From a virus, in IMG/VR virus record IMGVR_UViG_3300033752_000289: a DNA stretch of 64,000 nt; one strand, written 5' to 3'. Made by a program: the position numbers and the translations under genes. Below are positions 6,280 through 59,253 of this stretch, one piece after another. The notes under the pieces were generated by a model. The model did not search any database, was not told where the DNA came from, and saw only the letters and a program-made list of their open reading frames with translations. Within the stretch, counting starts at the first letter, position 1, and every line of letters starts with the position of its first letter.

Positions 6280-6296
6280 GACGGTCGCTCAACGTC
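6280..6296 (-). promoter_or_regulatory. PH element, diverged copy
   Basis: On the minus strand: gacgttgagcgaccgtc, then GAGGGG and the start at 6272/6266. Confidence 0.4.
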
Positions 6297-6369
6297 ACAT
6301 CGGATGGTACCGGCCGGAGATCAGGGCGAGCCATTCGCCTCGCCCCGGGGAATCTTGCTACAGTCACTA

Positions 6370-6390
6370 CGACAGGTCTCAGACTTGTCG
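6370..6390. promoter_or_regulatory. 21-bp near-palindrome CGACAGGTCTcAGACTTGTCG
   Basis: One mismatched pair. Lies in the 437-bp divergent gap 6273-6709. Confidence 0.4.
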
Positions 6391-6570
6391 CAGCGAAAAG
6401 CATCCGCTGCCCTGGGTTAGGCGCCAACGCGGTCGGAGTGTACCTTCCGCCGGCCGGCCGGCTGTCTCTACAGCTGGTGTGCCAACCCTGGGGGCCCGGG
6501 TGCCTGTCCGGGGAGTGTTTCGCTCGCGCGTAGATCCGGACTAGCTGCTGCAGGTGAGACCTACGTGACG

Positions 6571-6593
6571 GGCCCGGTCCATCGGACCGGGCC
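6571..6593 (+). other. 10-bp GC hairpin followed by TTGATCATTT (orphan terminator-like structure)
   Basis: ggcccggtcc atc ggaccgggcc. No annotated gene lies upstream on the plus strand. Confidence 0.3.
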
Positions 6594-6667
6594 TTGATCA
6601 TTTCCTCGCTGTCGGCGGCCCGGAGTAGACTGCTGGTCGGACGCAAGGAGCGTCCGCGGCAGATCAT

Positions 6668-6686
6668 CGCCCGTGAGCGACGGGCG
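6668..6686 (+). promoter_or_regulatory. PH element, stem-swapped copy
   Basis: cgcccgtGAGCGacgggcg has the same loop but a different, still perfect, 7-bp stem. The recT ATG at 6710 follows. Confidence 0.5.
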
Positions 6687-6709
6687 CCACGCGAAGGGAC
6701 TAACCACCC

Positions 6710-7978
6710 ATGACTGCTGCTGTCGTTGACCCTGCCCACCTTCCCGACGACCCCGACGAGACCGGTGACGCTTCGGCTGGGGGTCAGGTCGTCGCGATCC
6801 GCCCCGACGTCACCCTCCACCGCGGGCCGTGGTCGGACCCCGACGGCACCATCCACATCCCCACGCCGGTCGCGGGCCTGATCCTGACCTTCACCCCGGA
6901 CCAGAAGACCCTCACCGAGGCGCAGATGTCGGTGCTCGGCCCGCTCGGCATCGAGGCCGACTGGGACCCTGCCGCCGTCAAGCTGTTCCTGGTCGCCGCC
7001 CTGGCGCAGGGCTTCAACCCGTGGCTCAACGAGATCTACTTGTTCCGGTACCGGGACCCGTTCGGCGGCGCGCGGTACGTGCGGCACGTCTCGATCCACA
7101 CCATGCGTGCCCGCTGCGAGCAGACCGGCGAGTACCGCGGCCAGCTGCCCCCGCAGTTCGCCGGCGAGGACGGTGTGTGGAGGGATGTCTGGACGGACCG
7201 TAACCGTGCCCCGCTCGCCTGCCGGGTCGGGGTCATGCGCGAGGCCAACGACCAGATCATCTACGGCGTCGTCTACTACGACGAGGTGGCCCCGACGGAG
7301 CCGATCTACGGCACCGGACCGGACGGCAAAGAACGGATCGAGATCGGCCGGAAGCCGGTGAAGATGTGGTTGCCCGGCGCGCAGGGCGGCAAGGCCTGCC
7401 TGATGCTCGCCAAGGTCGCCGAGGCGCTCGCGCTTCGGCAGGCGTTCCCACAGATCCTCAGCGGCGTTTTCACCCCGGAGGAGTTGGCCCGGCAGGCGGA
7501 GGAGGACCGTGCGGCGCGCGCCGCAGAGGCCGCGGAGAGGGCGCGCAAGCGGCGCGAGGAGGCCATGCTGGCGGCCCAGCAGGCGGCCGCCGCGCCACCG
7601 CCGGCCACTGCGCCGGCGGCCGCCGCCGAGGACCCGCTGCCGGACGCTCCGGCTGAGGTCGACCGGAAGGCACTGCTGCTGGACGAGCTCACCGCCCAGG
7701 CCCTCGTCATGAGCGTCGCGCGGGAGACCCTGGCGCATCGGCAGCTGAGCCTTCACGGCGTCGACGAGGTGGACCAGCTGAGCGAGGAGCAGCTGGCCGA
7801 GCTGGTGCAGACGGTCCGGCCCGCGGTGGTCAACCGGCTGCGGGTCGCCGGCCTGCACGAGGAGGCGGACGCCTACAGCACCGTGACGGCCCCGAACACG
7901 GTCCAGCTGCTGTTCGGCCGGTCGCTCGAGGAGCTCACGGAACTGCTCAACGCAGCCGAGGGCGCCGGCCAGGCGTGA
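6710..7978 (+). CDS. recT: RecT-family single-strand annealing recombinase with an Ala/Pro/Glu-rich C-terminal extension
   Basis: Motifs FNPWLNEIYL, GEYRG, CLMLAKVAEALALRQAFPQ are typical of RecT. An exonuclease gene lies downstream. Confidence 0.8.
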   Translation: MTAAVVDPAHLPDDPDETGDASAGGQVVAIRPDVTLHRGPWSDPDGTIHIPTPVAGLILTFTPDQKTLTEAQMSVLGPLGIEADWDPAAVKLFLVAALAQGFNPWLNEIYLFRYRDPFGGARYVRHVSIHTMRARCEQTGEYRGQLPPQFAGEDGVWRDVWTDRNRAPLACRVGVMREANDQIIYGVVYYDEVAPTEPIYGTGPDGKERIEIGRKPVKMWLPGAQGGKACLMLAKVAEALALRQAFPQILSGVFTPEELARQAEEDRAARAAEAAERARKRREEAMLAAQQAAAAPPPATAPAAAAEDPLPDAPAEVDRKALLLDELTAQALVMSVARETLAHRQLSLHGVDEVDQLSEEQLAELVQTVRPAVVNRLRVAGLHEEADAYSTVTAPNTVQLLFGRSLEELTELLNAAEGAGQA

Positions 7979-8883: not shown

Positions 8884-8937
8884 GTGGGCGCGACGCAAAC
8901 CCAGGCCCGCACCTACGGTGCCGGCCTGGGTCGCGTA

Positions 8938-8956
8938 GGCGGGTGAGCGACCCGCC
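8938..8956 (+). promoter_or_regulatory. PH element copy
   Basis: ggcgggtgagcgacccgcc, then GGGAGGA and the ATG at 8978. Confidence 0.65.
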
Positions 8957-8977
8957 CCAAAAGGGAGGAACCGCCCT

Positions 8978-10246
8978 ATGACGAGCACTGTGGGCGCTTC
9001 GGCGCCTGCTGATCTCTCCCCGGAGGTGCTCCGGGCCCGGGAGTTCGTGGCCGCTGGCCGGGCGAATGACCCGGACACGGCCGTCTGCGTCTGCGGGGCA
9101 ACCAGACCGGACCACTCGACCGCGGCCTGCTCCGAGTTCCGCGTCGATCCGGCGTGGGAATTGGCCCGGCGCGCTGCCGCGGCGGACGAGAGCGACCCGC
9201 TCGCGGACATCGCCGCCCACTCCGAGATCCAGCGCGCCGGACGGCTCGGTAACGGCTGGGGGGTCGGCCCGTCCGACTACGGCACGTGCCGCCGGGCCAT
9301 CGAGTACCGGGAGCGGCCGCCGGCCGGCTACGAGCCCCTGCCGGAGGACACCCGCAAGGCCGACCTCGGCACCGCGTTCCACACCGGGCTGACCGCGGCC
9401 CGCCGCGCCCTGTACCCGTGGCGGATGTACGGGATGCAGGTCTACCTGCGGGGCCTGGATCGGCCCGGCGAGATCGACGAGTACGACCCGGTGACCGGGA
9501 CGGTCACCGACTGGAAGACGGCCGGCGACTGGACGTGGGACCGGGTGCGCACCGGGCCTCGGCCGGACCACAAGGGGCAGGTCCAGATCTACGCGATCGC
9601 GCTGCACCGCCAGGGCTACGAGGTTCGTCGGTGCCGCATCCTGTACGTCCACCGGGCGACCGGCGCGGCCGAGTACTTCGAGTGGGACTTCGACCCCGCC
9701 GACGACGAGCCGGTTCGCTGGCTCATGAACGTGCTCACGATGCTCGACTTGGGCATCGAGCTGCCCCGTGACCGTAGCGGCCCGTCGACCGACCCGATCT
9801 GCCGTCGGTGCCCGGCCCGAGCGCACTGCTGGAACATCCCTGAAGCCCTCGTGGCCGACCGCTCCCCCGAGTCGTACACGCTGCTCGGCCCCGACCCGGA
9901 CGACCCAACGATCGCGTGGGCCGCCCGGCGGCTGTACGAGGCCAACGAGGCGTACAAGGCCGCTGAGGCGGCGCGCGAGCAGGCGAAGGCCCTGCTGCAA
10001 GGCGTGCGGCCCGGCGTCGTCAACGACGGACAAGGGCCGCTCGAGATCTACCGGGGCGTGAGCTACGGCCGCCCCGACTACCGCGGCGCCTACGAGCGGG
10101 CGCTCGAGCTGATGCGACTTCCCGAGCACCTGCGCCCGGCAGAGCTGCCGCCACCGCGCAAGGCGCCGAACACCTACTACACGCAGGTCCGCCCGGCGCG
10201 GGCCGGCAAGAAGCCCCCCCGCAAGAACGGAAGGAGTACTCGGTGA
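8978..10246 (+). CDS. PD-(D/E)XK exonuclease, Cas4/RecB-like with a CxxCx5C cluster
   Basis: GTAFHTG, EIDEYD..VTDWKT, QVQIYAIAL and the C-terminal CRRCPARAHC. Logical partner of RecT. Confidence 0.75.
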   Translation: MTSTVGASAPADLSPEVLRAREFVAAGRANDPDTAVCVCGATRPDHSTAACSEFRVDPAWELARRAAAADESDPLADIAAHSEIQRAGRLGNGWGVGPSDYGTCRRAIEYRERPPAGYEPLPEDTRKADLGTAFHTGLTAARRALYPWRMYGMQVYLRGLDRPGEIDEYDPVTGTVTDWKTAGDWTWDRVRTGPRPDHKGQVQIYAIALHRQGYEVRRCRILYVHRATGAAEYFEWDFDPADDEPVRWLMNVLTMLDLGIELPRDRSGPSTDPICRRCPARAHCWNIPEALVADRSPESYTLLGPDPDDPTIAWAARRLYEANEAYKAAEAAREQAKALLQGVRPGVVNDGQGPLEIYRGVSYGRPDYRGAYERALELMRLPEHLRPAELPPPRKAPNTYYTQVRPARAGKKPPRKNGRSTR

Positions 10247-14640: not shown

Positions 14641-14694
14641 AGGCCGGCGGGTTCGGCACCCTGTGCCGGTGCCCGCCACCACATCCCTGCATCA

Positions 14695-14711
14695 CCGGGT
14701 GAGCGACCCGG
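14695..14711 (+). promoter_or_regulatory. PH element copy
   Basis: ccgggtgagcgacccgg, then GGAAGGAAGG and the ATG at 14723. Confidence 0.65.
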
Positions 14712-14722
14712 AAGGAAGGCTG

Positions 14723-15130
14723 ATGGAATCGGGCAAATACCCCCGCCCACTACCTGTGGGTGTGGGGCGGGTTCAGCGTCGCCGTGTCTGTGATTGGCGG
14801 GCCCCGAGCGGGGCTGTCTACGTTGGGCGGCCTACCCGGTGGGCGAACCCGTACTGGGTGCTGTCGGCCGGCCGTGGGGTTTGGGCGGTTGAGGGCCGCG
14901 GCAGTCGGCTTGCGCAGTTCGACACTCGGGAGGCGGCGCATCGGGACGCGGTGGACCGCTACCGGGTTGCGCTGCTCGAGGGGCACCCCGATGTGCCGAC
15001 GGTCGACGAGGTACGCCGGCAGCTGGCCGGCCGGGTGTTGATGTGCTGGTGCCCGCTCGAGCTGCCCTGCCATGCCGACGTGCTCCTCGCGGTGGCCGCC
15101 GGCGCGGACCTCGAGGACGGTGCGCGGTGA
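14723..15130 (+). CDS. DUF4326-like protein
   Basis: VYVGRPTRWANPY...LMCWCPLELPCHADVLL is the DUF4326 signature as I recall it. PH element and SD upstream. Confidence 0.65.
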   Translation: MESGKYPRPLPVGVGRVQRRRVCDWRAPSGAVYVGRPTRWANPYWVLSAGRGVWAVEGRGSRLAQFDTREAAHRDAVDRYRVALLEGHPDVPTVDEVRRQLAGRVLMCWCPLELPCHADVLLAVAAGADLEDGAR

Positions 15131-15642: not shown

Positions 15643-15659
15643 CGTGTACGATAACTGTG

Positions 15660-15678
15660 TGCGGGTGAGCGACCCGCA
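15660..15678 (+). promoter_or_regulatory. PH element copy
   Basis: tgcgggtgagcgacccgca. TACGAT at 15647-15652. The next start (15761) is unusually far away. Confidence 0.6.
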
Positions 15679-15760
15679 GCCACCACGTGTACGTTCCCCA
15701 ATGACGAAAGCCCCGGCGGCGCTTCGTGGCCGGATGCGCCACCGGGGATAAGGAGGTTCC

Positions 15761-16225
15761 ATGGCACAGACTAGCCTGCATCGCGTCGAATGGGTCACGC
15801 CGGACCAGTGGCAAGCCCGGTTCCGGCCGGCCTACACCACACCGCCCTGGCCGGAGGGTGTCACCGCGGTCAGCCGCGCCCGGTACACCCTCACCGATCA
15901 CTTGGCCGAGTCCTTGCGATTGTCGAGGGCCGCTTGCTGGGAACTCGTCGTCGTGGAGGACCCGGGGTTCGGTGCTCCTTGGTGGGGATCTCGCATCCAG
16001 TCCCGCCAGGTGTCCGCGGTCGCTCCTGGACCGGACGGCTCCGCCCGTCAGGAAGTGGTCCTCGACTACGAGGAGCTCATCGAGATCGACGGCCGGCTGT
16101 ACGAGCTGATCGCAGCGCCTGATCCGGTGCCGGCCTACAGCGCGCTCGCGGTCAGACCGCTCGGAGAATCGCGCGAGCGCGACTGGCGCCGCCGGTACGC
16201 CCACCTCTTCTCCACCGAGAGCTGA
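15761..16225 (+). CDS. hypothetical protein
   Basis: 154-aa ORF. AAGGAGG lies 5 nt upstream of the ATG. Confidence 0.6.
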   Translation: MAQTSLHRVEWVTPDQWQARFRPAYTTPPWPEGVTAVSRARYTLTDHLAESLRLSRAACWELVVVEDPGFGAPWWGSRIQSRQVSAVAPGPDGSARQEVVLDYEELIEIDGRLYELIAAPDPVPAYSALAVRPLGESRERDWRRRYAHLFSTES

Positions 16226-16759: not shown

Positions 16760-16769
16760 CATAGATGTG

Positions 16770-16788
16770 TGCGGGCGAGCGACCCGCA
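16770..16788 (+). promoter_or_regulatory. PH element copy
   Basis: tgcgggcgagcgacccgca. TAACAT at 16757-16762. GTG at 16804. Confidence 0.7.
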
Positions 16789-16803
16789 CAGGAAGGGGGC
16801 ACC

Positions 16804-17424
16804 GTGCAAGACTCACTGGACGGACGCCGGAAGTACCTGCGCCAGCTGATGTACAGGTGCTACGGCGATACCCACGAGCGGTGGGATCTGGCCCAAGCTC
16901 GGTTGGAAAGCATCACAACCGCGGAAGAGGTCGAAGACCATATCCGAGTCCTGGAGGCAGCGGGATTCGGTGACCCAAGATTTGTACGATCCCGAAAGGG
17001 ATGGGTCATTCAGGGCATGGCGGAAGAAATCCGCCCGGATCGGCAGATGTTCGCCGTCCTGCCTGATGGCAGCAGCGCAGCCATCAAGATCATCTCGGTG
17101 GGCAAGGCGTGGCGCCCCAACGAGCACGTCACCCCCCAGAGGTACGGCTACATAGAGCCGTTCCCGAAATGCCACCACGTGACCTGGGCGCTCGAGAAGG
17201 CCCAGGGCGGCGGGAAGGTCGAGTTCGCCCCGCCCGAGGACCCACGGGCGAAAGCGAACCAGAAGGCCACACCCGCCCAGGTCGATGAGGCAGAGCGCCT
17301 CGTTCGTGCCCGATGGCACGACAGCGACATCGGCCAAGGCTTCCACCCTCCCGCCCGTCACGAGCTCGAGCGAATGACCCAGTGGGAGATCGGGATGCTC
17401 ATCAGGGAGCTCAGGGGCCAGTAG
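16804..17424 (+). CDS. hypothetical protein
   Basis: GTG start 15 nt after the PH hairpin. The upstream part of ORF 16765.. merely translates the repeat. Confidence 0.6.
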   Translation: MQDSLDGRRKYLRQLMYRCYGDTHERWDLAQARLESITTAEEVEDHIRVLEAAGFGDPRFVRSRKGWVIQGMAEEIRPDRQMFAVLPDGSSAAIKIISVGKAWRPNEHVTPQRYGYIEPFPKCHHVTWALEKAQGGGKVEFAPPEDPRAKANQKATPAQVDEAERLVRARWHDSDIGQGFHPPARHELERMTQWEIGMLIRELRGQ

Positions 17425-17474: not shown

Positions 17475-18052
17475 CACGCCGTCTGCGCCGCGGCCTTGAG
17501 CGCAGGCCCGAGCAACTCCCCGAGGGTGACCCGCTGGTCGTCCGCGAGCTCCATGAGGGCGAGCACCTCGTCCGGGTGTGCGTTGAAGATCGTAATGAGG
17601 GCCTGGTTGACCCGCGACATGTCCACACCCCGGGCGAAGGTCTGCTGCTTGAACGCCCAGTGCTCGCCTGGCGGCAGGTAGACCTGCAGCGGCTTGCGTG
17701 ACTCCCCGAAGGACGCCGGCATGTCCGGCACCCCCGGATACCCGCTCCGGGCCCGGGCCCGGAGCGTTGCCCGCCGGCTCGTCGACCGTGGTTGCACGGC
17801 CAACGGCCGGGTCGGCTCCGGGTCAACTGCGGCCGGGCGCTCCTCGCGAGCTGCCGGTCTCGGCTCGGGCTCGACGGCCGGCGGCGGGTCAGCCGGGGGC
17901 TCCTTGGGAGGGGCCGGCACCACCGCGTGTGTTCCGGTGGCCTCCTGCATCACCGAGTCCAGCACGGCACTGCCGGTAGTTGGTCGGCCGAAGGCTCCCA
18001 TCCCACCAGGGACGGGAACTGTGGGCGACGGCCGCGCCGGCTTGGTCGCCAT
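17474..18052 (-). CDS. ParA partner protein (putative centromere-binding adaptor, no recognised ParB fold)
   Basis: Start overlaps the parA stop (TGATG). Pro-rich N-terminus and a helical C-terminal domain. Confidence 0.5.
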   Translation of the reverse strand: MATKPARPSPTVPVPGGMGAFGRPTTGSAVLDSVMQEATGTHAVVPAPPKEPPADPPPAVEPEPRPAAREERPAAVDPEPTRPLAVQPRSTSRRATLRARARSGYPGVPDMPASFGESRKPLQVYLPPGEHWAFKQQTFARGVDMSRVNQALITIFNAHPDEVLALMELADDQRVTLGELLGPALKAAAQTA

Positions 18053-20617: not shown

Positions 20618-20630
20618 TTCATGACGGCCA

Positions 20631-20644
20631 TCATGACGTCATGA
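20631..20644. promoter_or_regulatory. perfect 14-bp palindrome TCATGACGTCATGA (site 1) with an extra half-site at 20619-20626
   Basis: Read directly. Lies in the gap between the parA start and the stop of the HTH gene. Confidence 0.7.
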
Positions 20645-21448: not shown

Positions 21449-21534
21449 GGCGTCAATGATTTCATGGACGCCTGCGAGCTAGGATTAGGCGCGCGGTGGT
21501 CATCGATCGAGCTGTCCGTCATGACGGCAAGCAA

Positions 21535-21548
21535 TCATGACGTCATGA
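21535..21548. promoter_or_regulatory. TCATGACGTCATGA (site 2) with a half-site at 21519-21526
   Basis: 87 nt upstream of the start of the HTH gene 20684..21448. Confidence 0.7.
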
Positions 21549-21765: not shown

Positions 21766-21779
21766 TCATGACGTCATGA
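21766..21779. promoter_or_regulatory. TCATGACGTCATGA (site 3) with a half-site at 21749-21757
   Basis: Overlaps the last codons and the stop of the DUF3560 gene. Confidence 0.7.
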
Positions 21780-22474: not shown

Positions 22475-22494
22475 CCGGGCGCCTCCCAAAACCG

Positions 22495-43222: not shown

Positions 43223-43237
43223 AAGAGAGGAGGGATC

Positions 43238-43992: not shown

Positions 43993-44099
43993 CCCAGCGA
44001 CGCCGGCCCGATGCCATCGCCGCGGCACCGGGCCGGCGTCGCTGCACTGAGACACAAGCCCGGCTCGCCGGCCATCGTGCTGCTGGCGAGCCCGCCATC

Positions 44100-44118
44100 G
44101 GCGGGTGAGCGACCCGCC
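44100..44118 (+). promoter_or_regulatory. PH element copy
   Basis: ggcgggtgagcgacccgcc, the same subtype as 8938. The methyltransferase ATG at 44133 follows. Confidence 0.65.
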
Positions 44119-44132
44119 CCCCGGAGGAACCG

Positions 44133-48124: not shown

Positions 48125-48582
48125 TGACGGGCTCCGTAGGGCCGCGGAGCTACGTCGCCGCACGCGGAGGGGAGCAGTGGCGTGAGGCATTCCTGGAGGC
48201 GCCTCGGCGGGTCCGAGTCGCAGTGTCGACGATGCAGGATGCGGAAGATCGTCGTACCGCACCCGCACGCAGGCCGGTGGGTCACCCAGTGGATCACTGC
48301 GGCCGGGGAGCACCTGCCCAGCAGCGAGCATGAACCCCACCCTGTGAACCGGCGACGGCTCTACCGCGCGACGGTTCGCCCGGCGCAGCTCTCTGCGCCG
48401 GCTGGGCCCAGGTAGCTGCGGGCGTCCGGCGCCGGCGGGGAAACTTCTTGTCGGGCTGGACGGAGCAGGACTGGCGCAACGTGGGAGTCGAGCCAGAGGA
48501 CGGGGACGAGGCCGCCGCTGCCGGTCAGCCGGGGGAGTGAGGCCGTTCGCGGATTGTCCGCCCACCCGGTATCATTGATGTG

Positions 48583-48601
48583 TGCGGGCGAGCGACCCGC
48601 A
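48583..48601 (+). promoter_or_regulatory. PH element copy
   Basis: TATCAT at 48570-48575. ATG at 48617. Confidence 0.75.
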
Positions 48602-48616
48602 TGGAATGGAGGGGAC

Positions 48617-49180
48617 ATGGGCTACAAGACCTACCTCGACGGCTCGGTGCAGATCGACCCGCCGATCCCCAGCGAGCTGGTCAGGGCCAGCCGGTTCCAT
48701 CCCAACGGCGACCTGTACGGGACGCAGCTTGCGTTCGTCCTCGACGGGGCCGGCAACGCCGTCAGGATCGCGGCTCGCCGCTACGACGAGGAGAACGCGG
48801 ACGCGGATCGCGTGGTCGACGAGCTGCGGGAAATCATCGGGGCGTACCCGCATCACCGGTTGACGGGGCACCTGTTGGGCGTGGGCGAAGATCCGGGTGA
48901 CATGTGGCGCGTGGATCTGGTGGATGGCGAGCCCTACGCCCACAACGCCGAGATCTGCTGGCCGGACGCTCCGACCGGCCCCGAAGGCGGCCGGCTGCTT
49001 GAGCGGATCATCAACCAGCTCTACGACGCGAACCGTCACCGGACCGCGACCAGTCTCGACGACGCCCTTCTGCAGGCCGGTCTGGTGTGGCGCTGCGGCG
49101 AGTGTGACTGCCTGACGCCGCGGCACATCACCTGGTGTGACGGGTGCGGGAAGGAGCGGCCGGAGCCGGCGCAGAGCTGA
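48617..49180 (+). CDS. hypothetical protein with a C-terminal CxxC..CxxC zinc ribbon
   Basis: ATG 15 nt after the PH hairpin. CGECDC...WCDGCG. Confidence 0.6.
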   Translation: MGYKTYLDGSVQIDPPIPSELVRASRFHPNGDLYGTQLAFVLDGAGNAVRIAARRYDEENADADRVVDELREIIGAYPHHRLTGHLLGVGEDPGDMWRVDLVDGEPYAHNAEICWPDAPTGPEGGRLLERIINQLYDANRHRTATSLDDALLQAGLVWRCGECDCLTPRHITWCDGCGKERPEPAQS

Positions 49181-49225: not shown

Positions 49226-49280
49226 TCTTCGTGTGGGGGCGGAGTTGCGATGGCTGATCTTCCATGCTACTATTTGTGTG

Positions 49281-49299
49281 TGCGGGTGAGCGACCCGCA
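49281..49299 (+). promoter_or_regulatory. PH element copy
   Basis: TGcTACTAT at 49265-49273. ATG at 49319. Confidence 0.75.
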
Positions 49300-49318
49300 C
49301 AGGAAGGAGAGGCCCACG

Positions 49319-50167
49319 ATGACCACCTACACCAAGCACGCCGTCGGCCGTTGCCCCAACTGCGGATTCGGCATCGCCGCGATGGGCGCCACCTCGATCA
49401 GCTGCCCGAACTGTGGCGAGCGCGTCCGGCTTCGCTTCGTCGCCGTCCTGGCCTGGAACGGCAACCAGCTGTGCGACGACCGGTGCATGTACGCGACATC
49501 GAACACCTGCAGCTGCCGGTGCGACGGTGAGAACCACGGCGCCGGCTACCTCGGCATCGACACCGTGCCGCAGTGGGTGCGGGAGCGCGACGCCAAGGCC
49601 GCCGAGCAGCGCAAGCGGCGGGCCGAGGAGCGGAAGGCCCGCGAGGCGAAGAAGGCCGCGGACGCCCGCGACGAGATCCTCGCCGCCCACCCGCTCCTCC
49701 GCGAGCTGGCGAACGACGAGATCGCCTTCAAGTCGGACTTCCTGCTCGACATGCGGCGGGTGCTCGAGACGGGCCGGATGACCGAGCGGCAGATCGCCGC
49801 CGCCGAGAAGGTCATCACCGAGATCCGGCGGCGCGAGGAGGAGCGGGCCGCCCGGGAGCGCCGCCAGGCCGAGCTCCGCGCCGCTGGCGTGACCGTCCCG
49901 ACCGGTCGGCGCACCTTCACCGGCACCGTCATCGCGGTCCGGAGCGAGCCGAGCCGGTTCCGGAACGGTGACGAGCACCGGATGCTCGTCGAGGCCGCCG
50001 AGGGCTGGCGGGCGTGGGGCACGGTCCCCCGGTCCCTGCGCACCGCGGTCGAGACGCCGCGGGAGCTCATCGGCCGGAAGGTGGAGGTGACCGCCACCAT
50101 CGAGCGCCGCACGGAGGACTCCCTGTTCGGGATCATGCGGCGGCCGATTGCCCAGCTGATGGGCTGA
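49319..50167 (+). CDS. zinc-ribbon plus coiled-coil protein
   Basis: CPNCG..CPNCG and CSCRCDGENH, then a charged helical region. PH element upstream. Confidence 0.6.
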   Translation: MTTYTKHAVGRCPNCGFGIAAMGATSISCPNCGERVRLRFVAVLAWNGNQLCDDRCMYATSNTCSCRCDGENHGAGYLGIDTVPQWVRERDAKAAEQRKRRAEERKAREAKKAADARDEILAAHPLLRELANDEIAFKSDFLLDMRRVLETGRMTERQIAAAEKVITEIRRREEERAARERRQAELRAAGVTVPTGRRTFTGTVIAVRSEPSRFRNGDEHRMLVEAAEGWRAWGTVPRSLRTAVETPRELIGRKVEVTATIERRTEDSLFGIMRRPIAQLMG

Positions 50168-50206: not shown

Positions 50207-50222
50207 TGGTATCATAGTTGTG

Positions 50223-50241
50223 TGCGGGCGGGCGACCCGCA
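50223..50241 (+). promoter_or_regulatory. PH element copy (loop variant GGGCG)
   Basis: TGgTATCAT at 50207-50215. GTG at 50258. Confidence 0.7.
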
Positions 50242-50257
50242 CGGGAGGGAGAAGATC

Positions 50258-50698
50258 GTGACTCTCGAGTACGTCCAGACCGAGCCCGAGCCCACGACCA
50301 CCTGGGACGGGACGATCGCCACCATCACCGGTGTCCGGTACGTGTGGTTCGGCCATTGCTCCTGGTGCCGGAAGGCGATCGAGGTCTGGTCCGACGGCGG
50401 CACCGTTCGCGTCGGCATCCGCGAGAGCGGGCGGACCGTCCGGTGGTTCCGCGAGGATGAGCCGCCGTCGACTCCCTCAGCGCCGACCAAGTGCCCGCAC
50501 TGCGGTTACGAGTCCGAGCACGGCGTCTGCCGGTTTGAGCGAGTCCCTTCCTGGCTCCGGCGCACTGACGACGCGATCAGCGCGGTGTACGCCCAGCTCA
50601 GGGCGGACCACCCGGATCTGACCCATCGGGCCGACCGGGAAACCCGGGGGACGCGCTGGTGGACGCTCTACGGCGGTCGCCGCATCGCGCGGGCATAG
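50258..50698 (+). CDS. hypothetical Cys-containing protein
   Basis: GTG 16 nt after the PH hairpin, with SD GGGAGGGAG. Confidence 0.55.
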   Translation: MTLEYVQTEPEPTTTWDGTIATITGVRYVWFGHCSWCRKAIEVWSDGGTVRVGIRESGRTVRWFREDEPPSTPSAPTKCPHCGYESEHGVCRFERVPSWLRRTDDAISAVYAQLRADHPDLTHRADRETRGTRWWTLYGGRRIARA

Positions 50699-51681: not shown

Positions 51682-51753
51682 ACGGGACCGCATCAATCAT
51701 GAGGTGGGCTCGCCCCTACCCAGGGCGGGCCTTCTTCATGTACACTTCTTGTG

Positions 51754-51772
51754 TGCGGGTGAGCGACCCGCA
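51754..51772 (+). promoter_or_regulatory. PH element copy
   Basis: TACACT at 51741-51746. ATG at 51791. Confidence 0.7.
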
Positions 51773-51790
51773 TAGAAGGGAAGTGCCACC

Positions 51791-52174
51791 ATGGATCAAT
51801 CATTCCTGACCCCCTACGCCGTACCGGTCTGGAAGATCCCGGCGCCGTCGGTCTGGCAGATCCTGGAACAGCCGGCCTGGCAGATCTGGACGCCGGAGCG
51901 GGCCCTCGAGGTCGAGCTCGAGGGAGTGCTCAAGCGGGACGACCGCTTCGAGCTTCACCGCAGCGGCCGGGCCCTGGTCTTCCACGGGAACCACGCCATC
52001 GGCTACGTCGACATCGACGTCCGGTCGAACGGGTTCCTCGGGACCGTGCAGAGCGTGCCGGGGGTCGGTCCTGTCGAGCAGGCACGGTTCGCCCGGGCCC
52101 GGCTCGCGCAGGACTGGGTGGCAGAGCAGGTCGTCACCTGGGCCAAGCGGCACGGGCCGCAGCGGCTGAGGTAG
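51791..52174 (+). CDS. hypothetical protein
   Basis: ATG 18 nt after the PH hairpin. Confidence 0.6.
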   Translation: MDQSFLTPYAVPVWKIPAPSVWQILEQPAWQIWTPERALEVELEGVLKRDDRFELHRSGRALVFHGNHAIGYVDIDVRSNGFLGTVQSVPGVGPVEQARFARARLAQDWVAEQVVTWAKRHGPQRLR

Positions 52175-52411: not shown

Positions 52412-52473
52412 GCTGGCGTTTCCTCCCTTCCGGTCACTCGCTCCGCGACCACCACAATGGTAACATAGGTGTG

Positions 52474-52492
52474 TGCGAGTGAGCGACCCGCA
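52474..52492 (+). promoter_or_regulatory. PH element copy
   Basis: tgcgagtgagcgacccgca, with one stem mismatch. TGgTAACAT at 52458-52466. ATG at 52509. Confidence 0.7.
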
Positions 52493-52508
52493 CGGGAGGG
52501 AGGCCGCC

Positions 52509-52973
52509 ATGCGGCTCATTCACTTCAGCAACCGATCGATCGCCAAGGTCGGGCGCCGGGCCCAGCACAGCCCCGACGACCACCTGCTGTACTGGAGCAA
52601 GCCGGAAGGGCTGTGGGTCTCGGATGAGACCAACGCCTACGGGTGGCGGGAGTGGGTGCGGGACAACCTCCCGCGTCACCGGCTCCGTGACTACCGCGTC
52701 GCGAACGAGGTCACCCTCGCCAACGACGCGAACATCCTCGTCATCTCCGACGCGGCCGGGCTCGACGCCTTCACCAATCAGTTCGGCCGGCGCGACCGGC
52801 CGACATGCTGGCTGAACTGGTCGGCGGTCGCCGAGCAGTGGCAGGGCATCGTGATCACTCCCCACATCATGGAGCGGCACGGTCACGCCAGCTGCCTCTG
52901 GTACATGGTCTGGGAGGTCGCCTCGGGCTGCATCTGGGACCCGGCAGCGATCGCATCGATCCGGCGCCTGTAG
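52509..52973 (+). CDS. hypothetical protein
   Basis: ATG 16 nt after the PH hairpin, with SD GGGAGGGAGG. Confidence 0.6.
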   Translation: MRLIHFSNRSIAKVGRRAQHSPDDHLLYWSKPEGLWVSDETNAYGWREWVRDNLPRHRLRDYRVANEVTLANDANILVISDAAGLDAFTNQFGRRDRPTCWLNWSAVAEQWQGIVITPHIMERHGHASCLWYMVWEVASGCIWDPAAIASIRRL

Positions 52974-53050
52974 CCCAGGAGCGGGGCCGCCGGCACCAGC
53001 TGGCGGCCCTTCGTCGTGCTCGGACACAAGCATCTGGTATCATTAGTGTG

Positions 53051-53069
53051 TGCGGGCGAGCGACCCGCA
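53051..53069 (+). promoter_or_regulatory. PH element copy
   Basis: TGgTATCAT at 53035-53043. ATG at 53084. Confidence 0.75.
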
Positions 53070-53083
53070 TGGAGGGAGCGAAG

Positions 53084-53296
53084 ATGTCCCAGCAGGTGAG
53101 CCGCGCCGAGATCAAGGCCATGTGGGAGCTGGCCGACCAGCGGTCCGGTCGCGCCGGGATGGTCCAGTGCCCCGGGTGCCCGGAGGGCTACCTGGTCCCG
53201 GACACCCCCGAGACCGAGGGCTACTGCTCACGGCACCGGGAGCCCATCGGTCGGCTGGACGGCATCGGCCCGATCGGCGACGACCATTACCCGTGA
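53084..53296 (+). CDS. hypothetical small protein
   Basis: ATG 14 nt after the PH hairpin. Confidence 0.55.
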   Translation: MSQQVSRAEIKAMWELADQRSGRAGMVQCPGCPEGYLVPDTPETEGYCSRHREPIGRLDGIGPIGDDHYP

Positions 53297-55020: not shown

Positions 55021-55050
55021 GGCCCCCGCCTGTTTCCGCAGGTGGGGGCC
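55021..55050 (+). terminator. hairpin terminator followed by TATTTCTGT
   Basis: ggcccccgcc-N10-ggtgggggcc, with one G.U pair. Confidence 0.6.
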
Positions 55051-55085
55051 TATTTCTGTCGTACCCCTGGCGTACCTTATCTGTG

Positions 55086-55104
55086 TGCGGGCGAGCGACC
55101 CGCA
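55086..55104 (+). promoter_or_regulatory. PH element copy
   Basis: TACCTT at 55073-55078. ATG at 55124. Confidence 0.7.
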
Positions 55105-55123
55105 TAGGAAGGATCAGGTACCC

Positions 55124-55711
55124 ATGTCCACTAGGGGCTTCCTCGGCTTCGTCATCGACGGCGCCGAGAAGATCACCTACAACCACATGGACTCCTACCC
55201 GAGCTGGCTCGGGCTGCGAGTCCTCGAGTGGGCACGCCAGGCCCACCCGGGCGAGACGATCAACGCTGCCCGGGCGCTGCGGGTGGTCGACCAGGACGCC
55301 GTACCGACTGACGAGGACGTGGAGCGGCTGCGCCGCTACCTCAACGAGAACGTCGATACGACGGTCACCATCGGCGGCGCGAGGCGGACCTGGCCGAGCT
55401 GGTACCAGCTGCTACGGGGGACGCAGGGTGACCCTGCCGCGATCCTCGAGGCCGGCGTGATCATCGACGCCTCGGACTTCCCGAGCTACTCGCTAGACGC
55501 GGAGTGGGGGTACCTCATCGACATCGACACAGGGACGCTCGAGGTCTACCGCGGCTGGCAAAGCAAGCCACACAACCGAGGCCGGTTCGCCGGCCGTAGC
55601 TCCGCGGGGCGCGGGTACTACCCGTGCGCCCTGGTGGCCTCGTGGCCTCTGCTGAACCTGCCGAGCGACGAGGCGTTCCTCGCCACCCTGGCGGAGTTCG
55701 GAGAGGTCTGA
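55124..55711 (+). CDS. hypothetical protein
   Basis: ATG 19 nt after the PH hairpin. Confidence 0.6.
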   Translation: MSTRGFLGFVIDGAEKITYNHMDSYPSWLGLRVLEWARQAHPGETINAARALRVVDQDAVPTDEDVERLRRYLNENVDTTVTIGGARRTWPSWYQLLRGTQGDPAAILEAGVIIDASDFPSYSLDAEWGYLIDIDTGTLEVYRGWQSKPHNRGRFAGRSSAGRGYYPCALVASWPLLNLPSDEAFLATLAEFGEV

Positions 55712-55755: not shown

Positions 55756-55784
55756 GGTTCCTGCCGTGTACCATGGTTGCTGTG

Positions 55785-55803
55785 TCCGGGTGAGCGACCC
55801 GTA
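55785..55803 (+). promoter_or_regulatory. PH element, variant copy
   Basis: tccgggtgagcgacccgta. TACCAT at 55769-55774. ATG at 55816. Confidence 0.6.
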
Positions 55804-55815
55804 TAGGGAGGATCA

Positions 55816-56085
55816 ATGCCGGAAGAGCGTGTCAGCTACTTCAAGGCCCGCGACTGGGCCTCGGACAAGAAGGACAACTGGGACGGCACTCCTGATCCCG
55901 AGGGGCCGTTGAAGGCCATCTGGGACGAGGTGCGGTCGGATTACCCCGACCTGACGGGTGAGGAGCTGCTTGGACGGTTCCTCAACGATGTGTGGGATGT
56001 AGCTTCCGACGCTGATTGGGACGACCTCGAGTCCATCTGCGACGAAAATTGCGACATCCTCCCGGACGACACCTACCACCTGTGA
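55816..56085 (+). CDS. hypothetical acidic protein
   Basis: ATG 12 nt after the PH hairpin, with SD GGGAGGA. Confidence 0.55.
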   Translation: MPEERVSYFKARDWASDKKDNWDGTPDPEGPLKAIWDEVRSDYPDLTGEELLGRFLNDVWDVASDADWDDLESICDENCDILPDDTYHL

Positions 56086-56129
56086 CGGGTTGCGCGAGCG
56101 CAGGCCAGCCACTAGGGTAGGTTTGTGTG

Positions 56130-56150
56130 TGCGGGCGAGCGACCCGTGCA
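56130..56150 (+). promoter_or_regulatory. PH element, variant copy
   Basis: tgcgggcgagcgacccgtgca. TAGGGT at 56113-56118. ATG at 56166. Confidence 0.6.
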
Positions 56151-56165: not shown

Positions 56166-56492
56166 ATGGTTCCGCTGCTGAACACGTCGATCGTCACGGC
56201 CCCCGGCGACTACCGCGTCGAGGACATCACGGTCGACCAAGCCCGGCAGCTGGTGGAGGCGGCCGGCGGGAAGGTCCGCTCCTTCGTCGGGCATCCCGAG
56301 ACGGCGCAGATGCTCAGCACGCTGCTGGGAGTCGAGGTCCCGACCAGCCGGGACCGGTACGAGCAGCAGGCAGGGGAGACGGCCATCGTCTTCCAAATCA
56401 ACGGCCGCCGCCCCGAGCCCGGCGTCGAACTCACAGCCGAGCAGATCCAGGAGATCGGCTTCACGCTGCGTTCGATGACGCGGCTGTCGTAG
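56166..56492 (+). CDS. DUF1874 (STIV B116-like) protein
   Basis: LLNTSIVTAPGDYRVEDIT..A..L....KVRSFVGHPETAQMLSTLLGVEV matches the B116-like pattern from memory. Confidence 0.55.
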   Translation: MVPLLNTSIVTAPGDYRVEDITVDQARQLVEAAGGKVRSFVGHPETAQMLSTLLGVEVPTSRDRYEQQAGETAIVFQINGRRPEPGVELTAEQIQEIGFTLRSMTRLS

Positions 56493-56639: not shown

Positions 56640-56675
56640 TGCGTTTGGCGTCGTGGTCATGGTAGACTCTGTGTG

Positions 56676-56694
56676 TGTGGGTGAGCGACCCGCA
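56676..56694 (+). promoter_or_regulatory. PH element copy
   Basis: tgtgggtgagcgacccgca. The stem needs one U.G pair. TGgTAGACT at 56660-56668. GTG at 56712. Confidence 0.7.
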
Positions 56695-56711
56695 GATGGG
56701 AGGTTTCCACA

Positions 56712-56945
56712 GTGGCAACCATCGCCGGTTTGGACGACAGCGGCGACCCGCAAGTCTGTCTGGGGCTCCTGATCGAGACGGAAGAGCTCGAGCGGTGGGC
56801 CGGCCGCAAGCTGACTGGCGCCGAAATCGAGCGGCTCGCGGCATGCGTCCCGTTCTCGAGCATCCCGGAGGCGATCCAGACGATCGTCGACAGCTGGGAG
56901 GAACCGCAGCACCACGTCGAGATTGCGGCATCGAGAGTCCTGTAA
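56712..56945 (+). CDS. hypothetical protein
   Basis: GTG 17 nt after the PH hairpin. Confidence 0.5.
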   Translation: MATIAGLDDSGDPQVCLGLLIETEELERWAGRKLTGAEIERLAACVPFSSIPEAIQTIVDSWEEPQHHVEIAASRVL

Positions 56946-56994
56946 GCCCGCGGGGTGCCACCCCTGCCCCGCCCGACGGCCGGAAGGAGGCGCC

Positions 56995-57240
56995 ATGCCT
57001 ATCGTCGTCATCAGCCGCACGTACCTCGCGAACGGCCACCCCGGAGAGATCCGCGAGGCGACCGGGCAGGAGGAGTGGGAGGCGCTGCTCAACCGGCTCC
57101 GCGACCGGGGACTCACCCCGGAGCCGTTCCGGACCGAGGACGGCACCGACGGCGTGACCGTGGAGTGCCCGGGCCTCCTCGACGCCCGCGACGTCCACGG
57201 CATCGCGTGCGCCTACCGCGCCCTGCCGGTCATCAGTTAG
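56995..57240 (+). CDS. hypothetical protein
   Basis: GGAAGGAGG upstream. In frame with ORF 56923..57240. Confidence 0.5.
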   Translation: MPIVVISRTYLANGHPGEIREATGQEEWEALLNRLRDRGLTPEPFRTEDGTDGVTVECPGLLDARDVHGIACAYRALPVIS

Positions 57241-57296
57241 GCCGCCGGGTGGGGGGTCTTGGCGTCTCGGGACGCTAACTCACAGGGCAGCGCAGC

Positions 57297-57803
57297 ATGG
57301 CGCGCATGACAGCGCTGTACGACGCAGCCGGCCAGCGGCTCACCAAGAGCCAGGCGCAGGCTCTCACCACCCCTGTTCCCGACCCCCAGCTGGTCACGGT
57401 CGAGGAGGACATCTACGCCGACCGGCCGTACGACCAGACGGCCGGCCGCGGCGCCACCGACCAGTCGGTCGACGGCTCGATTCGCCAGCTGCTGTACCCG
57501 AAGGGGGCGGTCATCCCGGCGGCCGAGCTTGCCGCCCACTTCCCGACGGCGACCGTCACCGACATCGACCCGGACACGGGCCCGGAGGAGGGCGGCACCG
57601 AGGTGACGATCACCGGCACCAACCTGTCGGGCGTCTCTGCGGTGCTGTTCGGCGCGAACGCGGGCACCGACCTCAAGATCGTGTCGCAGACCGAGATCAC
57701 GGTGAAGACCCCGGCTGGCAGCGCCGGCGCGGTGAACGTCACCGTCAAGGACGACTCCGGCGACGTCGTGAAAACCAACGGCTTCACCTACGTCGGCGGC
57801 TGA
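57297..57803 (+). CDS. IPT/TIG-domain protein
   Basis: VTDIDPDTGPEEGGTEVTITGTNLSGVSAVLFG....VSQTEITVKTPAG.AGAVNVTV. Confidence 0.6.
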   Translation: MARMTALYDAAGQRLTKSQAQALTTPVPDPQLVTVEEDIYADRPYDQTAGRGATDQSVDGSIRQLLYPKGAVIPAAELAAHFPTATVTDIDPDTGPEEGGTEVTITGTNLSGVSAVLFGANAGTDLKIVSQTEITVKTPAGSAGAVNVTVKDDSGDVVKTNGFTYVGG

Positions 57804-57921
57804 TTCGCCCGACCTACCCTGTTCGCCCAGCGGCCCGGGACCGTCCGGGCCGCCCGTCTTTCCGGACCTGCGCGGAGCACCGCGAGACGCTAACTGGTCG
57901 GCCGGTGCAGGGTGCCGGACC

Positions 57922-58959
57922 ATGACGTACGCACCGCAGACGTACAAGGACGCCCGAGCATTTCTGCTGCACGAGCTCGACACCCACCCCGGCGTGACCG
58001 TCAACGACGACCTCGACCCGCTCGAGGTCGGCATCGTCGGCGACGAGGCCCACATTCGGGCCGGCACCAGCTACCACCTCGGGCTCGTGCACCTCAAGCC
58101 GAACGCCTACTCGCTGCGGCTCCCGCGGGACCGGGCCGGCGCCACGAACGGCGCCGCCGCGCTCGATATCGGCTGGTTCAGCAAGACGCTGCCGAACGGC
58201 CGGACCATCAACCTGCGCACCCTGTCGACGTGGCTGGTCCAGCAGTGCCAGGCCGGCGCCTCGGACACCCTGTGGATTCGGGAGATCGGCTACAGCCCCG
58301 ACGGCAACGTGGTGCTGCACTGGGACCGCGAGCGTGGCCGCACCAGCGCCCCGGTCGCCGGTGTGTTCGACCTCTCGCACCGGTGGCACACCCACATCTC
58401 GGGCTACCGCGACTGCGAGACCGTCGACAAGACGTCCCTGTTCCGCCGCGCCCTCAAGGAACTGTCCGAGGGTCTGTGGACCCCGACCCCGCCCAAGCCG
58501 AGCGCCTGGGTGCCCACCCTGCACCAGGGGCTGCCGACGCTGAAGCGGCGCGACTCCGGCACCTTCGTCCGGTCGGCCCAGGCCGCCCTCTACGCCCACG
58601 GGTTCCCGCCGTTCCCGAACGACCCGCGGCGCAGCATCGATGGGGACTTTGGCCCCAAGACCGAGGCGGCCGTCCGCAACTTCCAGGCCGCCCGCGGGCT
58701 CAAGGTGGACGGCATCATCGGCACCGGGGAGACCTGGCCGGCCCTGTTCAGCGCCGCCGGCACCGTCGCCCGCGGCAACCGCGGCACCGCCGTCAGCATC
58801 GCCCAGGCGCTGCTGTGCGCCCGCGGCCAGTGGATTCTGATCGACGGCATCGCCGGTCGGCAGACCGACGAGGCGATCAGGTCCTTCCAGCGGGCCCGCG
58901 GCCTCAAGGTCGACGGCATCGCCGGCCCGGCGACCTGGCCAAGGCTGATCCGCGGCTGA
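57922..58959 (+). CDS. endolysin: N-terminal putative peptidase domain plus three PG_binding_1-type repeats
   Basis: Three copies of the D/G-FGP/I.G..T..A.R.FQ.ARGLKVDGI.G..TW..L pattern. Confidence 0.75.
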   Translation: MTYAPQTYKDARAFLLHELDTHPGVTVNDDLDPLEVGIVGDEAHIRAGTSYHLGLVHLKPNAYSLRLPRDRAGATNGAAALDIGWFSKTLPNGRTINLRTLSTWLVQQCQAGASDTLWIREIGYSPDGNVVLHWDRERGRTSAPVAGVFDLSHRWHTHISGYRDCETVDKTSLFRRALKELSEGLWTPTPPKPSAWVPTLHQGLPTLKRRDSGTFVRSAQAALYAHGFPPFPNDPRRSIDGDFGPKTEAAVRNFQAARGLKVDGIIGTGETWPALFSAAGTVARGNRGTAVSIAQALLCARGQWILIDGIAGRQTDEAIRSFQRARGLKVDGIAGPATWPRLIRG

Positions 58960-58965
58960 CCCGCC

Positions 58966-59253
58966 ATGGCTGCCCCGGACCTCCCCCAGGTTGGCGACGA
59001 AGTGCTGGTGGCCGGCCGGATCGTCGACATCCTCGACACCGGCCGGCAAACCTTCGCCGTCGTCTCGGTCCCCGGCGCCCGACCCCACCTCGGCCACATC
59101 GCGGTGCCGCTGCACGACGTCCAGACCCGCCCCGGCGGCTGGACCCCACCCGATCTTGAGACAAAGCACAGCCCTGGCATTTCGTCGGGGTCGTGCATAG
59201 AATTGACTAGGGATCGGGTGAGCGACCCGACCACAACGGAAGGACCTCGCTGA
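58966..59253 (+). CDS. hypothetical protein (the 3' end contains a PH element)
   Basis: 95-aa ORF. Its stop overlaps the next ATG (TGATG). Confidence 0.45.
   Translation: MAAPDLPQVGDEVLVAGRIVDILDTGRQTFAVVSVPGARPHLGHIAVPLHDVQTRPGGWTPPDLETKHSPGISSGSCIELTRDRVSDPTTTEGPR
59214..59230 (+). promoter_or_regulatory. PH element copy inside the 3' end of the upstream ORF
   Basis: tcgggtgagcgacccga, a compensated stem. TAGAAT at 59198-59203. ATG at 59253. Confidence 0.6.

Follow-up and report, generated by a model that had tools for sequence, protein, structure and literature searches.

The closest described feature to the repeated hairpin that we report here, which recurs along the 64,000 nt analysed of IMG/VR virus record IMGVR_UViG_3300033752_000289 (the window, 70% G+C), is the start-associated sequence (SAS) of Cluster K mycobacteriophages. 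The SAS and its extended form (ESAS) carry a 13-nt GGGATAGGAGCCC motif that contains the Shine–Dalgarno (SD) sequence and lies 3–7 nt from the start codon, and little support for RNA pairing of the ESAS was found by its authors (PMC3203893); the function of the SAS was still untested in 2025 (PMC12699233). Both the SAS and the hairpin are 13-nt asymmetric sequences with a GGG-N7-CCC outline, present in 10–20 or more copies that all point the same way, directly ahead of the start codons of non-structural genes with no relation to one another, and kept across diverged genomes, and both could act through a host or element factor. They differ in that the centre of the SAS is the SD itself, whereas the hairpin has the centre (Y)GAGCGA with a separate SD after it; moreover, compensatory pairing is clear here, most copies are fused to a -10 box, and the sequences are unrelated and belong to other hosts.

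Other repeats of actinophages and T4-type phages share parts of this architecture. Cluster A stoperators are asymmetric intergenic sites of 13–14 bp without dyad symmetry, oriented with transcription (PMC4351075, PMC3203893); they resemble the hairpin in numbering about 30 copies per genome, in their asymmetric core and in that orientation, but the core of the hairpin sits in a dyad maintained by compensatory changes and is tightly linked to an SD. The protein that binds stoperators is an immunity repressor of the L5 gp71 type. The 17-bp repeats of Cluster O have invariant 7-bp arms round a variable 3-bp centre, no orientation and no link to starts (PMC4351075), and, while they too reach about 30 mostly intergenic copies per genome, every feature of arm, centre, orientation and start position is the opposite here. 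The promoter-early stem-loop (PeSL) elements of T4-type phages consist of a terminator stem-loop followed by an early promoter and flank ORFan genes, the boundaries of indels falling at the motif (PMC2839356, PMC4122927). Like the element described here they are short composite cassettes between small ORFan genes in a plastic region, each gene being its own transcription unit; in contrast, our hairpin lies downstream of the promoter and beside the SD, its loop is invariant, and some copies have no promoter at all. Finally, 5'-terminal stabiliser stem-loops (the E. coli ompA leader, the B. subtilis ermC/aprE type) are features of single genes with no conserved loop, whereas one hairpin sequence is here reused about 30–40 times per replicon and conserved between replicons. 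A literature search for the motif string gave no paper containing it and no earlier description of the element, and Rfam gave nothing at gathering thresholds over the whole window and no match on the hairpins at E≤5 over 41–57 kb. The cassette is apparently undescribed, and belongs with the repeated regulatory leader cassettes of mobile elements; the best explanation of the repeat, in our view, is that a family of large mobile elements in the Micromonosporaceae uses a modular expression cassette with this repeat at its core.

The repeated hairpin array is confirmed by counts, model and -10 tests that cover the whole length of the window. The core GGGYGAGCGACCC, with at most one mismatch, is matched 25 times against 1.3 expected, a number reached by none of 100 shuffles. 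A covariance model (A2/R1, here R1) built from the copies and run with filters off gave 28 matches at the acceptance threshold of E<0.01 (23.5–38.8 bits), as many as had been claimed in a first-pass annotation made from the sequence alone; below a clear score gap, the next matches (18.8 bits or less) are reverse-strand echoes of accepted sites. A 29th, divergent copy on the minus strand (52429–52451, GGTCGC-G-GAGCGA-GTGACC), with its own TGTTACCAT box and SD, was missed by R1. The split of 23 plus- and five minus-strand copies given earlier has to be amended, since R1 places 24 on the plus strand and four on the minus strand (6277, 22493, 24468, 24498), with the divergent 29th also on minus; that every copy lies on the coding strand of the gene that follows is borne out (29/29, promoter-less copies included). 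When sites were chosen independently of pairing, 28 of the 54 YGAGCGA heptamers in the window had at least five of six complementary flanking positions, compared with 4% of random positions, and the other 26 or so represent the background frequency for such a composition. The centre, which the first-pass annotation gave as a nearly invariant TGAGCGA with one GGGCG variant (CGGGCGA, at 50221), has C instead of T at the first loop position in eight window copies.

The consensus of the cassette in the window reads ggTAnnaT, nn, gTG, TGTGCGGG, YGAGCGA, CCCGCAc, GaagGGag, 5–10 nt and ATG/GTG. The element proper is a GC stem of 5–8 bp with the invariant (Y)GAGCGA loop; the SD follows 0–17 nt past the hairpin, separate from the core, and the start codon 11–32 nt after the stem. 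Since a consensus sigma-70 scan needs a -35 element and is blind to these promoters, enrichment of the -10 box was tested directly in its place. TANNNT has a frequency of 0.0011 per position in the window, and a -10-type hexamer (22 TANNNT and one CATAAT) ends 4–9 nt before the 23-mer in 23 of the 29 copies, at exactly 5 nt in 14; nine copies have the extended TGnTAnnnT type, and nine of the 12 TGNTANNNT sites of the whole window lie at hairpins. The link to a -10 box and its frequently extended form stand as first described, with figures that replace the earlier ones (about 19 copies with TANNNT 5–11 nt upstream, at least eight of them extended). Over every element examined, 73 of 84 copies have an SD next and, 11–32 nt after the stem, a start codon that opens a reading frame (ORF) of at least 35 codons, compared with 5% of random positions, and the order -10 box, hairpin near +1, SD and start codon, also proposed earlier, is therefore statistically strong. 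The single SD-less exception noted near 15660 (copy 15658) stands as well, the next plausible ORF starting at 15761.

Six copies (6666, 8936, 14692, 24468, 24498, 44098) have no -10 box, yet an SD and a start codon still follow; because of these copies, the hairpin appears to track gene starts and not promoters. Their stems are shorter and different (CGCCCG/CGGGCG, GGCGGG/CCCGCC, CCGGG/CCCGG, CGCGGG/CCCGCG), and -10-less copies of the window and its relatives often lie 5–20 nt past an upstream stop codon, ahead of SD and start. Conversely, promoters without the hairpin exist (for example TGCTACGGT, ahead of the XRE/DUF5753 gene), which makes the hairpin a separable module. Assuming the usual 6-nt gap after the -10 box, the predicted +1 is the second base of TGTGCGGG, so that the RNA would begin with the stem, and in the clearest cases (49280, 31075) the fold of the predicted transcript has a hairpin of 8 bp at its 5' end and leaves the SD unpaired. 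Ahead of many cassettes stands a distinct terminator-like GC hairpin that belongs to the preceding gene, and therefore almost every small gene in 41–57 kb, where there are 15 copies in 16 kb and nearly one per small gene, would be its own unit.

The cassette is conserved in three diverged lineages. The independent relatives that carry it comprise an 87-kb IMG/VR contig (the 39 kb examined contain 22 copies, all on one strand and with SD and start codon following), a contig of Micromonospora sp. NPDC006766 (three copies in 8 kb) and the complete circular 203-kb conjugative plasmid NZ_CP107937.1 of Micromonospora zamorensis NBC_00407, found only by a 45-nt cassette query; no close relative was recovered from deposited phages or plasmids by megablast of 20-kb window pieces. 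In the M. zamorensis plasmid all 18 model matches lie on the strand of the annotated genes, with start codons of the NCBI annotation pipeline (PGAP) 13–19 nt after the hairpin; 17 fall within 129–157.6 kb and one near 172 kb, with none in the other 150 kb or so (cargo). The cassettes of this plasmid have a -35-like TTGCG 17–18 nt upstream of -10 boxes of the TAAACT type, which strengthens the promoter reading.

The stem was analysed in 65 aligned copies from the window and its 20.4-kb extension (see below), the 87-kb element and the NPDC006766 contig, the M. zamorensis plasmid copies being left out. All eight pairs vary on both sides, and none of 500 shuffles reached the observed covariation score, compensatory stem changes being found among the copies. 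Because the 65 copies had been picked partly by pairing, the test was repeated on a set selected solely by the 13-nt core (73 copies with 53 distinct flanks): of these 53, 51 are complementary at flanking pair 4 and 50 at pair 5, against a null of 0.39, and pair 5 occurs as six pair types (GC 34, CG 8, GU 3, UG 1, UA 2, AU 2). The view that the stem varies and stays paired, including a fully swapped copy at 6668, is thereby upheld. As for the loop, G10, G12, G14 and A15 are invariant in the 65 copies and A11 and C13 almost never changed, TGAGCGA is present in 16 of 16 inspected copies of the M. zamorensis plasmid, and the loop is fixed although the proteins common to the lineages are only 27–57% identical. 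It is the structure that is conserved and not the arm sequence: variable paired arms surround a fixed asymmetric centre.

Many-copy global operators are normal in large plasmids (RK2 KorA/KorB, the R388 systems), and an oriented DNA operator, either stoperator-like or serving a global plasmid repressor, has to be considered. A repressor would bind the asymmetric GGGYGAGCGACCC duplex at about +1 to +23 and inside operons, and backbone and establishment genes would be silenced until entry into a new host. We consider this unlikely. The site does lie immediately downstream of a -10 box in 23 of 29 copies, its 13-bp core and the promoter-linked arms are nearly invariant, and its strict orientation and intergenic position are those of Cluster A stoperators (PMC4351075, PMC3203893). 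Against this, pairs 4 and 5 lie outside the core and stay complementary through double changes, which a site in duplex DNA does not need; copies track SD and start codon even where there is no promoter; no homologue of the phiC31 c protein is encoded (tblastn against the window, the relatives and the plasmid, no match at E≤1); and the pattern is the reverse of that of the operators checked, namely phiC31, Cluster O and the family's own palindrome beside XRE/ParA. De novo reading of phiC31 gives 16 sites, each a copy of the perfect 18-bp palindrome CCTACTCACGTGAGTAGG, whose arms do not vary. They resemble the hairpin as many-copy intergenic inverted repeats in an actinomycete mobile element, but have no asymmetric centre and hence no orientation, whereas the hairpin arms vary and covary. 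BLAST of the cassette against phage records gave one weak match at chance level (E about 0.8).

The window has a perfect palindrome of its own, TCATGACGTCATGA, in four tight intergenic clusters (20619–20644, 21517–21548, 21748–21779 and 31005–31050), the last of which shows an 8-bp periodicity and separates the XRE/DUF5753 gene from the first rightward cassette; CGTCATGR is matched 17 times in the window against 6.3 expected. Both the M. zamorensis plasmid and the 87-kb relative keep TCATGACGTCATGA beside XRE/ParA (L145 5750–5810 and 8032/8052; L144 25150/25170; L011 8866), and it is probably the operator or centromere of a DNA-binding protein of the family. Considering the varying hairpin arms, the lack of a c homologue and this separate classical palindrome beside the XRE gene, the earlier suggestion of a phiC31-like repressor operator array is disfavoured. 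In phiC31 itself (12989–36235, minus-strand matches) we also noticed about nine copies of a second conserved block, GGTTGCCGACTCCCTTAC on the gene strand, upstream of early genes, presumably a conserved early promoter class of that phage.

We suggest instead, with about an even chance of being right, that the hairpin is an mRNA leader structure that stands at the 5' end after promoters and between cistrons within operons, and that one trans-acting factor probably binds its loop. Of the three explanations offered in the first-pass annotation, a leader or translational operator acting at the RNA level fits best, given the covarying arms, the fixed centre, and the six -10-less copies in the window and many in the relatives that precede an SD. 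In a full cassette a -10 box of the sigma-A type, frequently extended, would be followed after about 5 nt by the 5–8-bp GC hairpin with the (Y)GAGCGA loop and, 0–15 nt further on, by a strong SD and then the start codon. After a promoter, the hairpin would form at, or 1–3 nt from, the 5' end of the transcript; in operons, the -10-less version would separate a gene's stop codon from the SD of the gene after it, and every tagged gene would receive the same leader. Such a 5' or intercistronic structure may shield the message from 5'-end-dependent decay (by RNase J or RNase E) and may keep the adjacent SD free of upstream pairing, while the unchanging loop could be the contact point of one trans-acting factor, possibly host-encoded, placing the tagged genes under joint control. 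More tentatively, and in our estimate rather improbably, the (Y)GAGCGA loop could be the address label of a replicon-wide post-transcriptional regulon, in which a dedicated RNA-binding factor, encoded by the element or the host, would recognise one 5' hairpin on dozens of mRNAs not otherwise related, and so switch, protect or preferentially translate establishment and accessory genes of large conjugative plasmids of actinomycetes. We know of no description of such global RNA-level control for plasmids.

Several observations weigh against an RNA leader. The 5' ends of the transcripts are predictions from the -10 spacing, and in three of the eight contexts that were folded (8925, 44085, 53050) a structure other than the hairpin has the minimum energy. 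Promoter-linked copies hardly vary in their arms (TGTGCGGG...CCCGCA), a pattern that would fit a DNA site too, and the copies of the M. zamorensis plasmid, with only 5 bp paired, would leave a few 5' nucleotides unpaired. The covariation is among paralogous copies and not along a phylogeny, because the copies of the relatives are not at orthologous positions. Two copies pairing through U.G (34102, 56676) had been taken to favour RNA over DNA; the corresponding strand test of G.U against A.C over the inner five pairs gives 8 GU and 2 AC, which is not significant and comes from a choice of copies biased towards GU. A plain stabiliser or insulator role leaves the invariant loop unexplained, and no RNA-binding domain was found with Pfam or PHROGs among the hairpin-tagged and conserved proteins. 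Most of the approximately 27 tagged products searched (26 of them in Pfam) have no Pfam match, two in 41–57 kb being assigned to DUF6205 and to a STIV B116-like family, and eight tagged products also run against PHROGs gave few matches, all to families of unknown function. In the DNA of the three lineages that was examined, only ParA and the FtsK-like protein were common to all, which hints at a host factor.

If the RNA leader reading is true, the cassette would be a compact cis-regulatory RNA motif coordinating dozens of genes on large plasmids of antibiotic-producing actinomycetes, and would offer a counterpart, open to testing, to the start-associated sequences of Cluster K, which still lack an explanation. 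A new RNA-binding regulator might come to light through it, or a general form of 5'-end protection in bacteria possessing RNase J together with RNase E, and it would provide a natural modular part (promoter, 5' untranslated region and ribosome-binding site) for Micromonospora and other high-GC hosts. Experiments are made feasible by an isolate that carries the cassette, M. zamorensis NBC_00407 (plasmid NZ_CP107937.1).

The fold of the loop bears on an antitermination or attenuation mechanism of the nut/boxB kind, in which a small protein would bind the nascent hairpin and let polymerase read through the terminators between cassettes. T-type loops are predicted to be closed by a U-A pair and to present GAGCG as a pentaloop on a 5-bp GC stem, geometrically like lambda boxB, and the hairpin is promoter-proximal with terminator-like hairpins between cassettes. 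However, this closing pair is unavailable to copies with C or A as the first loop base, and the GNRA-like boxB fold requires a final loop A whereas this loop ends in G. There are about 29–41 copies per genome instead of about two, the tight link to an SD is not required by such a mechanism, no N-like protein was identified, and no boxA-like partner was noticed, boxA not having been searched for. We regard this mechanism as highly improbable.

The 29 copies of the window are as follows (coordinates, strand, element and gene that follows; distances are those of the -10-type hexamer upstream).

6277–6299, minus: degenerate copy, TGTGACGT-TGAGCGA-CCGTCTGA, with a 4-bp stem (R1 23.5 bits); TACCAT at 4 nt; SD GAGGGGG; gene 5787–6266 (minus), which has a homologue in the M. 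zamorensis plasmid.
6666–6688, plus: no -10 box; swapped stem CGCCCG/CGGGCG; precedes the RecT-like gene 6710–7978.
8936–8958, plus: no -10 box; stem GGCGGG/CCCGCC; precedes the PD-(D/E)XK nuclease gene 8978–10246.
14692–14714, plus: no -10 box; stem CCGGG/CCCGG; precedes the DUF4326 gene 14723–15130.
15658–15680, plus: TACGAT at 5 nt; no SD or start codon within 30 nt; next plausible ORF 15761–16225.
16768–16790, plus: TAACAT at 5 nt; 8-bp stem; SD GGAAGGGGG; gene 16804–17424.
22493–22515, minus: TAGACT at 5 nt; gene 22181–22474 (minus).
24498–24520, minus: first of a tandem pair; stem CGCGGG/CCCGCG; no -10 box; directly after the stop codon of the small ORF 24521–24745 (minus), itself downstream of the FtsK/TraB-like gene.
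24468–24490, minus: second of the tandem pair; stem CCGGG/CCCGG; no -10 box; SD AAGGAAGG; gene of an HTH_23 protein, 24095 to about 24460 (minus).
31074–31096, plus: first rightward cassette, divergent from the XRE gene; TACAGT at 9 nt; gene 31111–31518.
31582–31604, plus: TGcTATGAT at 7 nt; gene 31621–31929.
34099–34121, plus: short stem GCTGG/CCGGC with one U.G; TACAGT at 4 nt; gene 34140–34436.
41420–41442, plus: TATACT at 5 nt; loop CGAGCGA; gene 41451–41816.
41897–41919, plus: TGgTATCAT at 5 nt; gene 41936–42469.
42542–42564, plus: TGgCATAAT at 6 nt; gene 42583–42780.
43202–43224, plus: TGgTACGAT at 7 nt; gene 43238–43537.
44098–44120, plus: no -10 box; stem GGCGGG/CCCGCC; precedes the intein-containing C5 methylase gene 44133–47150.
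48581–48603, plus: TATCAT at 5 nt; DUF6205 gene 48617–49180.
49279–49301, plus: top-scoring copy (R1 38.8 bits); TGcTACTAT at 5 nt; gene 49319–50167.
50221–50243, plus: TGgTATCAT at 5 nt; loop variant CGGGCGA; gene 50258–50698.
51752–51774, plus: TACACT at 5 nt; gene 51791–52174.
52429–52451, minus: the divergent 29th copy, GGTCGC-G-GAGCGA-GTGACC, not found by R1; TGtTACCAT at 5 nt; SD AGGGAGG; 26-codon ORF.
52472–52494, plus: TGgTAACAT at 5 nt; one A.C mismatch in the stem; gene 52509–52973.
53049–53071, plus: TGgTATCAT at 5 nt; gene 53084–53296.
55084–55106, plus: TACCTT at 5 nt; terminator-like hairpin upstream at 55021–55050; gene 55124–55711.
55783–55805, plus: TACCAT at 8 nt; stem TGTCCGGG/CCCGTATA; gene 55816–56085.
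56128–56150, plus: TAGGTT at 4 nt or TAGGGT at 9 nt; STIV B116-like gene 56166–56492.
56674–56696, plus: TGgTAGACT at 5 nt; one U.G; gene 56712–56945.
59211–59233, plus: short stem TCGGG/CCCGA; TAGAAT at 7 nt (CTGGCA-18-TAGAAT); gene 59253–59621.

The density of copies in 41–57 kb raises a role in recombination, the block of about 50 bp acting as a portable, PeSL-like homology patch for swapping ORFan genes, possibly via the element's own RecT and PD-(D/E)XK pair. We think such a shuffling module very unlikely as the explanation of the repeat. In its favour, the 15 copies in these 16 kb precede mostly small genes without Pfam matches and have terminator-like hairpins upstream, cassettes within one genome are 90% identical over 51 nt and are not at orthologous genes in the relatives, both recombination proteins are encoded, and PeSL elements provide a precedent (PMC2839356, PMC4122927). 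A homology patch, however, needs neither a compensatorily paired stem nor an invariant loop, the promoter-less copies have only about 13–17 nt in common, which is too short for homologous recombination, and no actual shuffling junction was observed. A shuffling role may coexist with the expression function.

The tandem pair at 24468–24520, the only one in the window, lies just downstream of the translocase gene, and this touches on the idea that the hairpin contains a recognition 8-mer (GACCCGCA or GACCCGGA) of the FtsK/TraB-like translocase and serves as a dispersed clt or as a guide resembling FtsK-orienting polar sequences (KOPS). The FtsK-like protein is one of the two common to all lineages, and GACCCGCA occurs in 17 hairpin copies and GACCCGGA in one. 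Since clt loci are direct 8-bp repeats clustered at one locus and recognised by the cognate TraB (PMC4447253), the hairpin copies are unlike them, being dispersed inverted repeats, one per gene start. Towards its 3' end (positions 19–21) the 8-mer is variable and changes together with the 5' arm, so that no fixed 8-mer is under selection; outside hairpins, GACCCGCA and GACCCGGA are scattered at background level with no clt-like cluster. Moreover, no tandem pair lies beside the translocase gene in the M. zamorensis plasmid, and the 5' arm, loop, -10 box and SD would all be left unexplained. This explanation, raised speculatively in the first-pass annotation, is not supported and we think it extremely unlikely.

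With regard to the nature of the element that carries the array, the window is one end of the Joint Genome Institute (JGI) metagenome contig Ga0373397_000156 (126,536 bp), which encodes a window protein identically. IMGVR_UViG_3300033750_000123 was rejected as an independent relative, since it is 100% identical to window positions 61485–64000 (2,516 nt; positions 1–2516 of that record); it runs 20.4 kb further with DnaB, an SNF2 helicase and an ADP-ribosyltransferase, and its 12 more copies extend the window's array and do not replicate it. The genes in the 84 kb examined of this genome include those for RecT, PD-(D/E)XK, DnaB, the SNF2 helicase, a Mom-like protein, DUF5131, a C5 methylase and the ADP-ribosyltransferase; no virion or integrase gene was seen in these 84 kb. 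The backbone that the window has in common with the M. zamorensis plasmid comprises the FtsK/TraB-like protein (29% identity), XRE-DUF5753 (46%), ParA (57%) and a DnaC-like protein (47%), and the plasmid also has a relaxase, a coupling protein and conjugation genes of the SCO6880 type. The framing of the array as that of a phage and of an induced lysogen is not supported, the relatives including a conjugative plasmid, and, as these 84 kb showed no virion genes, the viral label may be the misclassification of a plasmid. A REP-like repeat of the host would be dispersed over the chromosome with no tie to gene starts. In a 17-mer scan of a genome collection, the matches listed were almost only single, chance-like ones in GC-rich genomes, a result that cannot show absence from host chromosomes; in a 20-mer metagenome scan most matches were single, lacked a -10 box or SD and looked like chance, true relatives being rare.

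A few further observations concern single loci. At 52429–52494 two cassettes stand back to back, with -10 boxes overlapping on opposite strands (ATGGTAACAT); the leftward one (52429) has an entirely different stem and is followed only by a 26-codon cysteine-rich ORF, MAHNCLVPELCYECNPLPEPEDTESE. Just upstream of the promoter of the 43202 copy, at about 43145–43165, lies a tRNA T-arm-like sequence, GGGGTTCGACTCCCCGC, which recurs upstream of a cassette in an unrelated short metagenome contig (at about 440–460); it gives a weak tRNA-like echo in Rfam and no tRNA by ARAGORN, and might represent either the 3' fragment of a tRNA that persists as an att remnant or a terminator. The M. zamorensis plasmid encodes a sigma-70-family factor (L144 29508–30107), divergent from a hairpin-tagged block and without a homologue in the window. 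Finally, the ParA-type ATPase (18052–20178, minus) and the C5 cytosine methylase (44133–47150, plus) of the window are each split by an intein with a LAGLIDADG homing-endonuclease domain.

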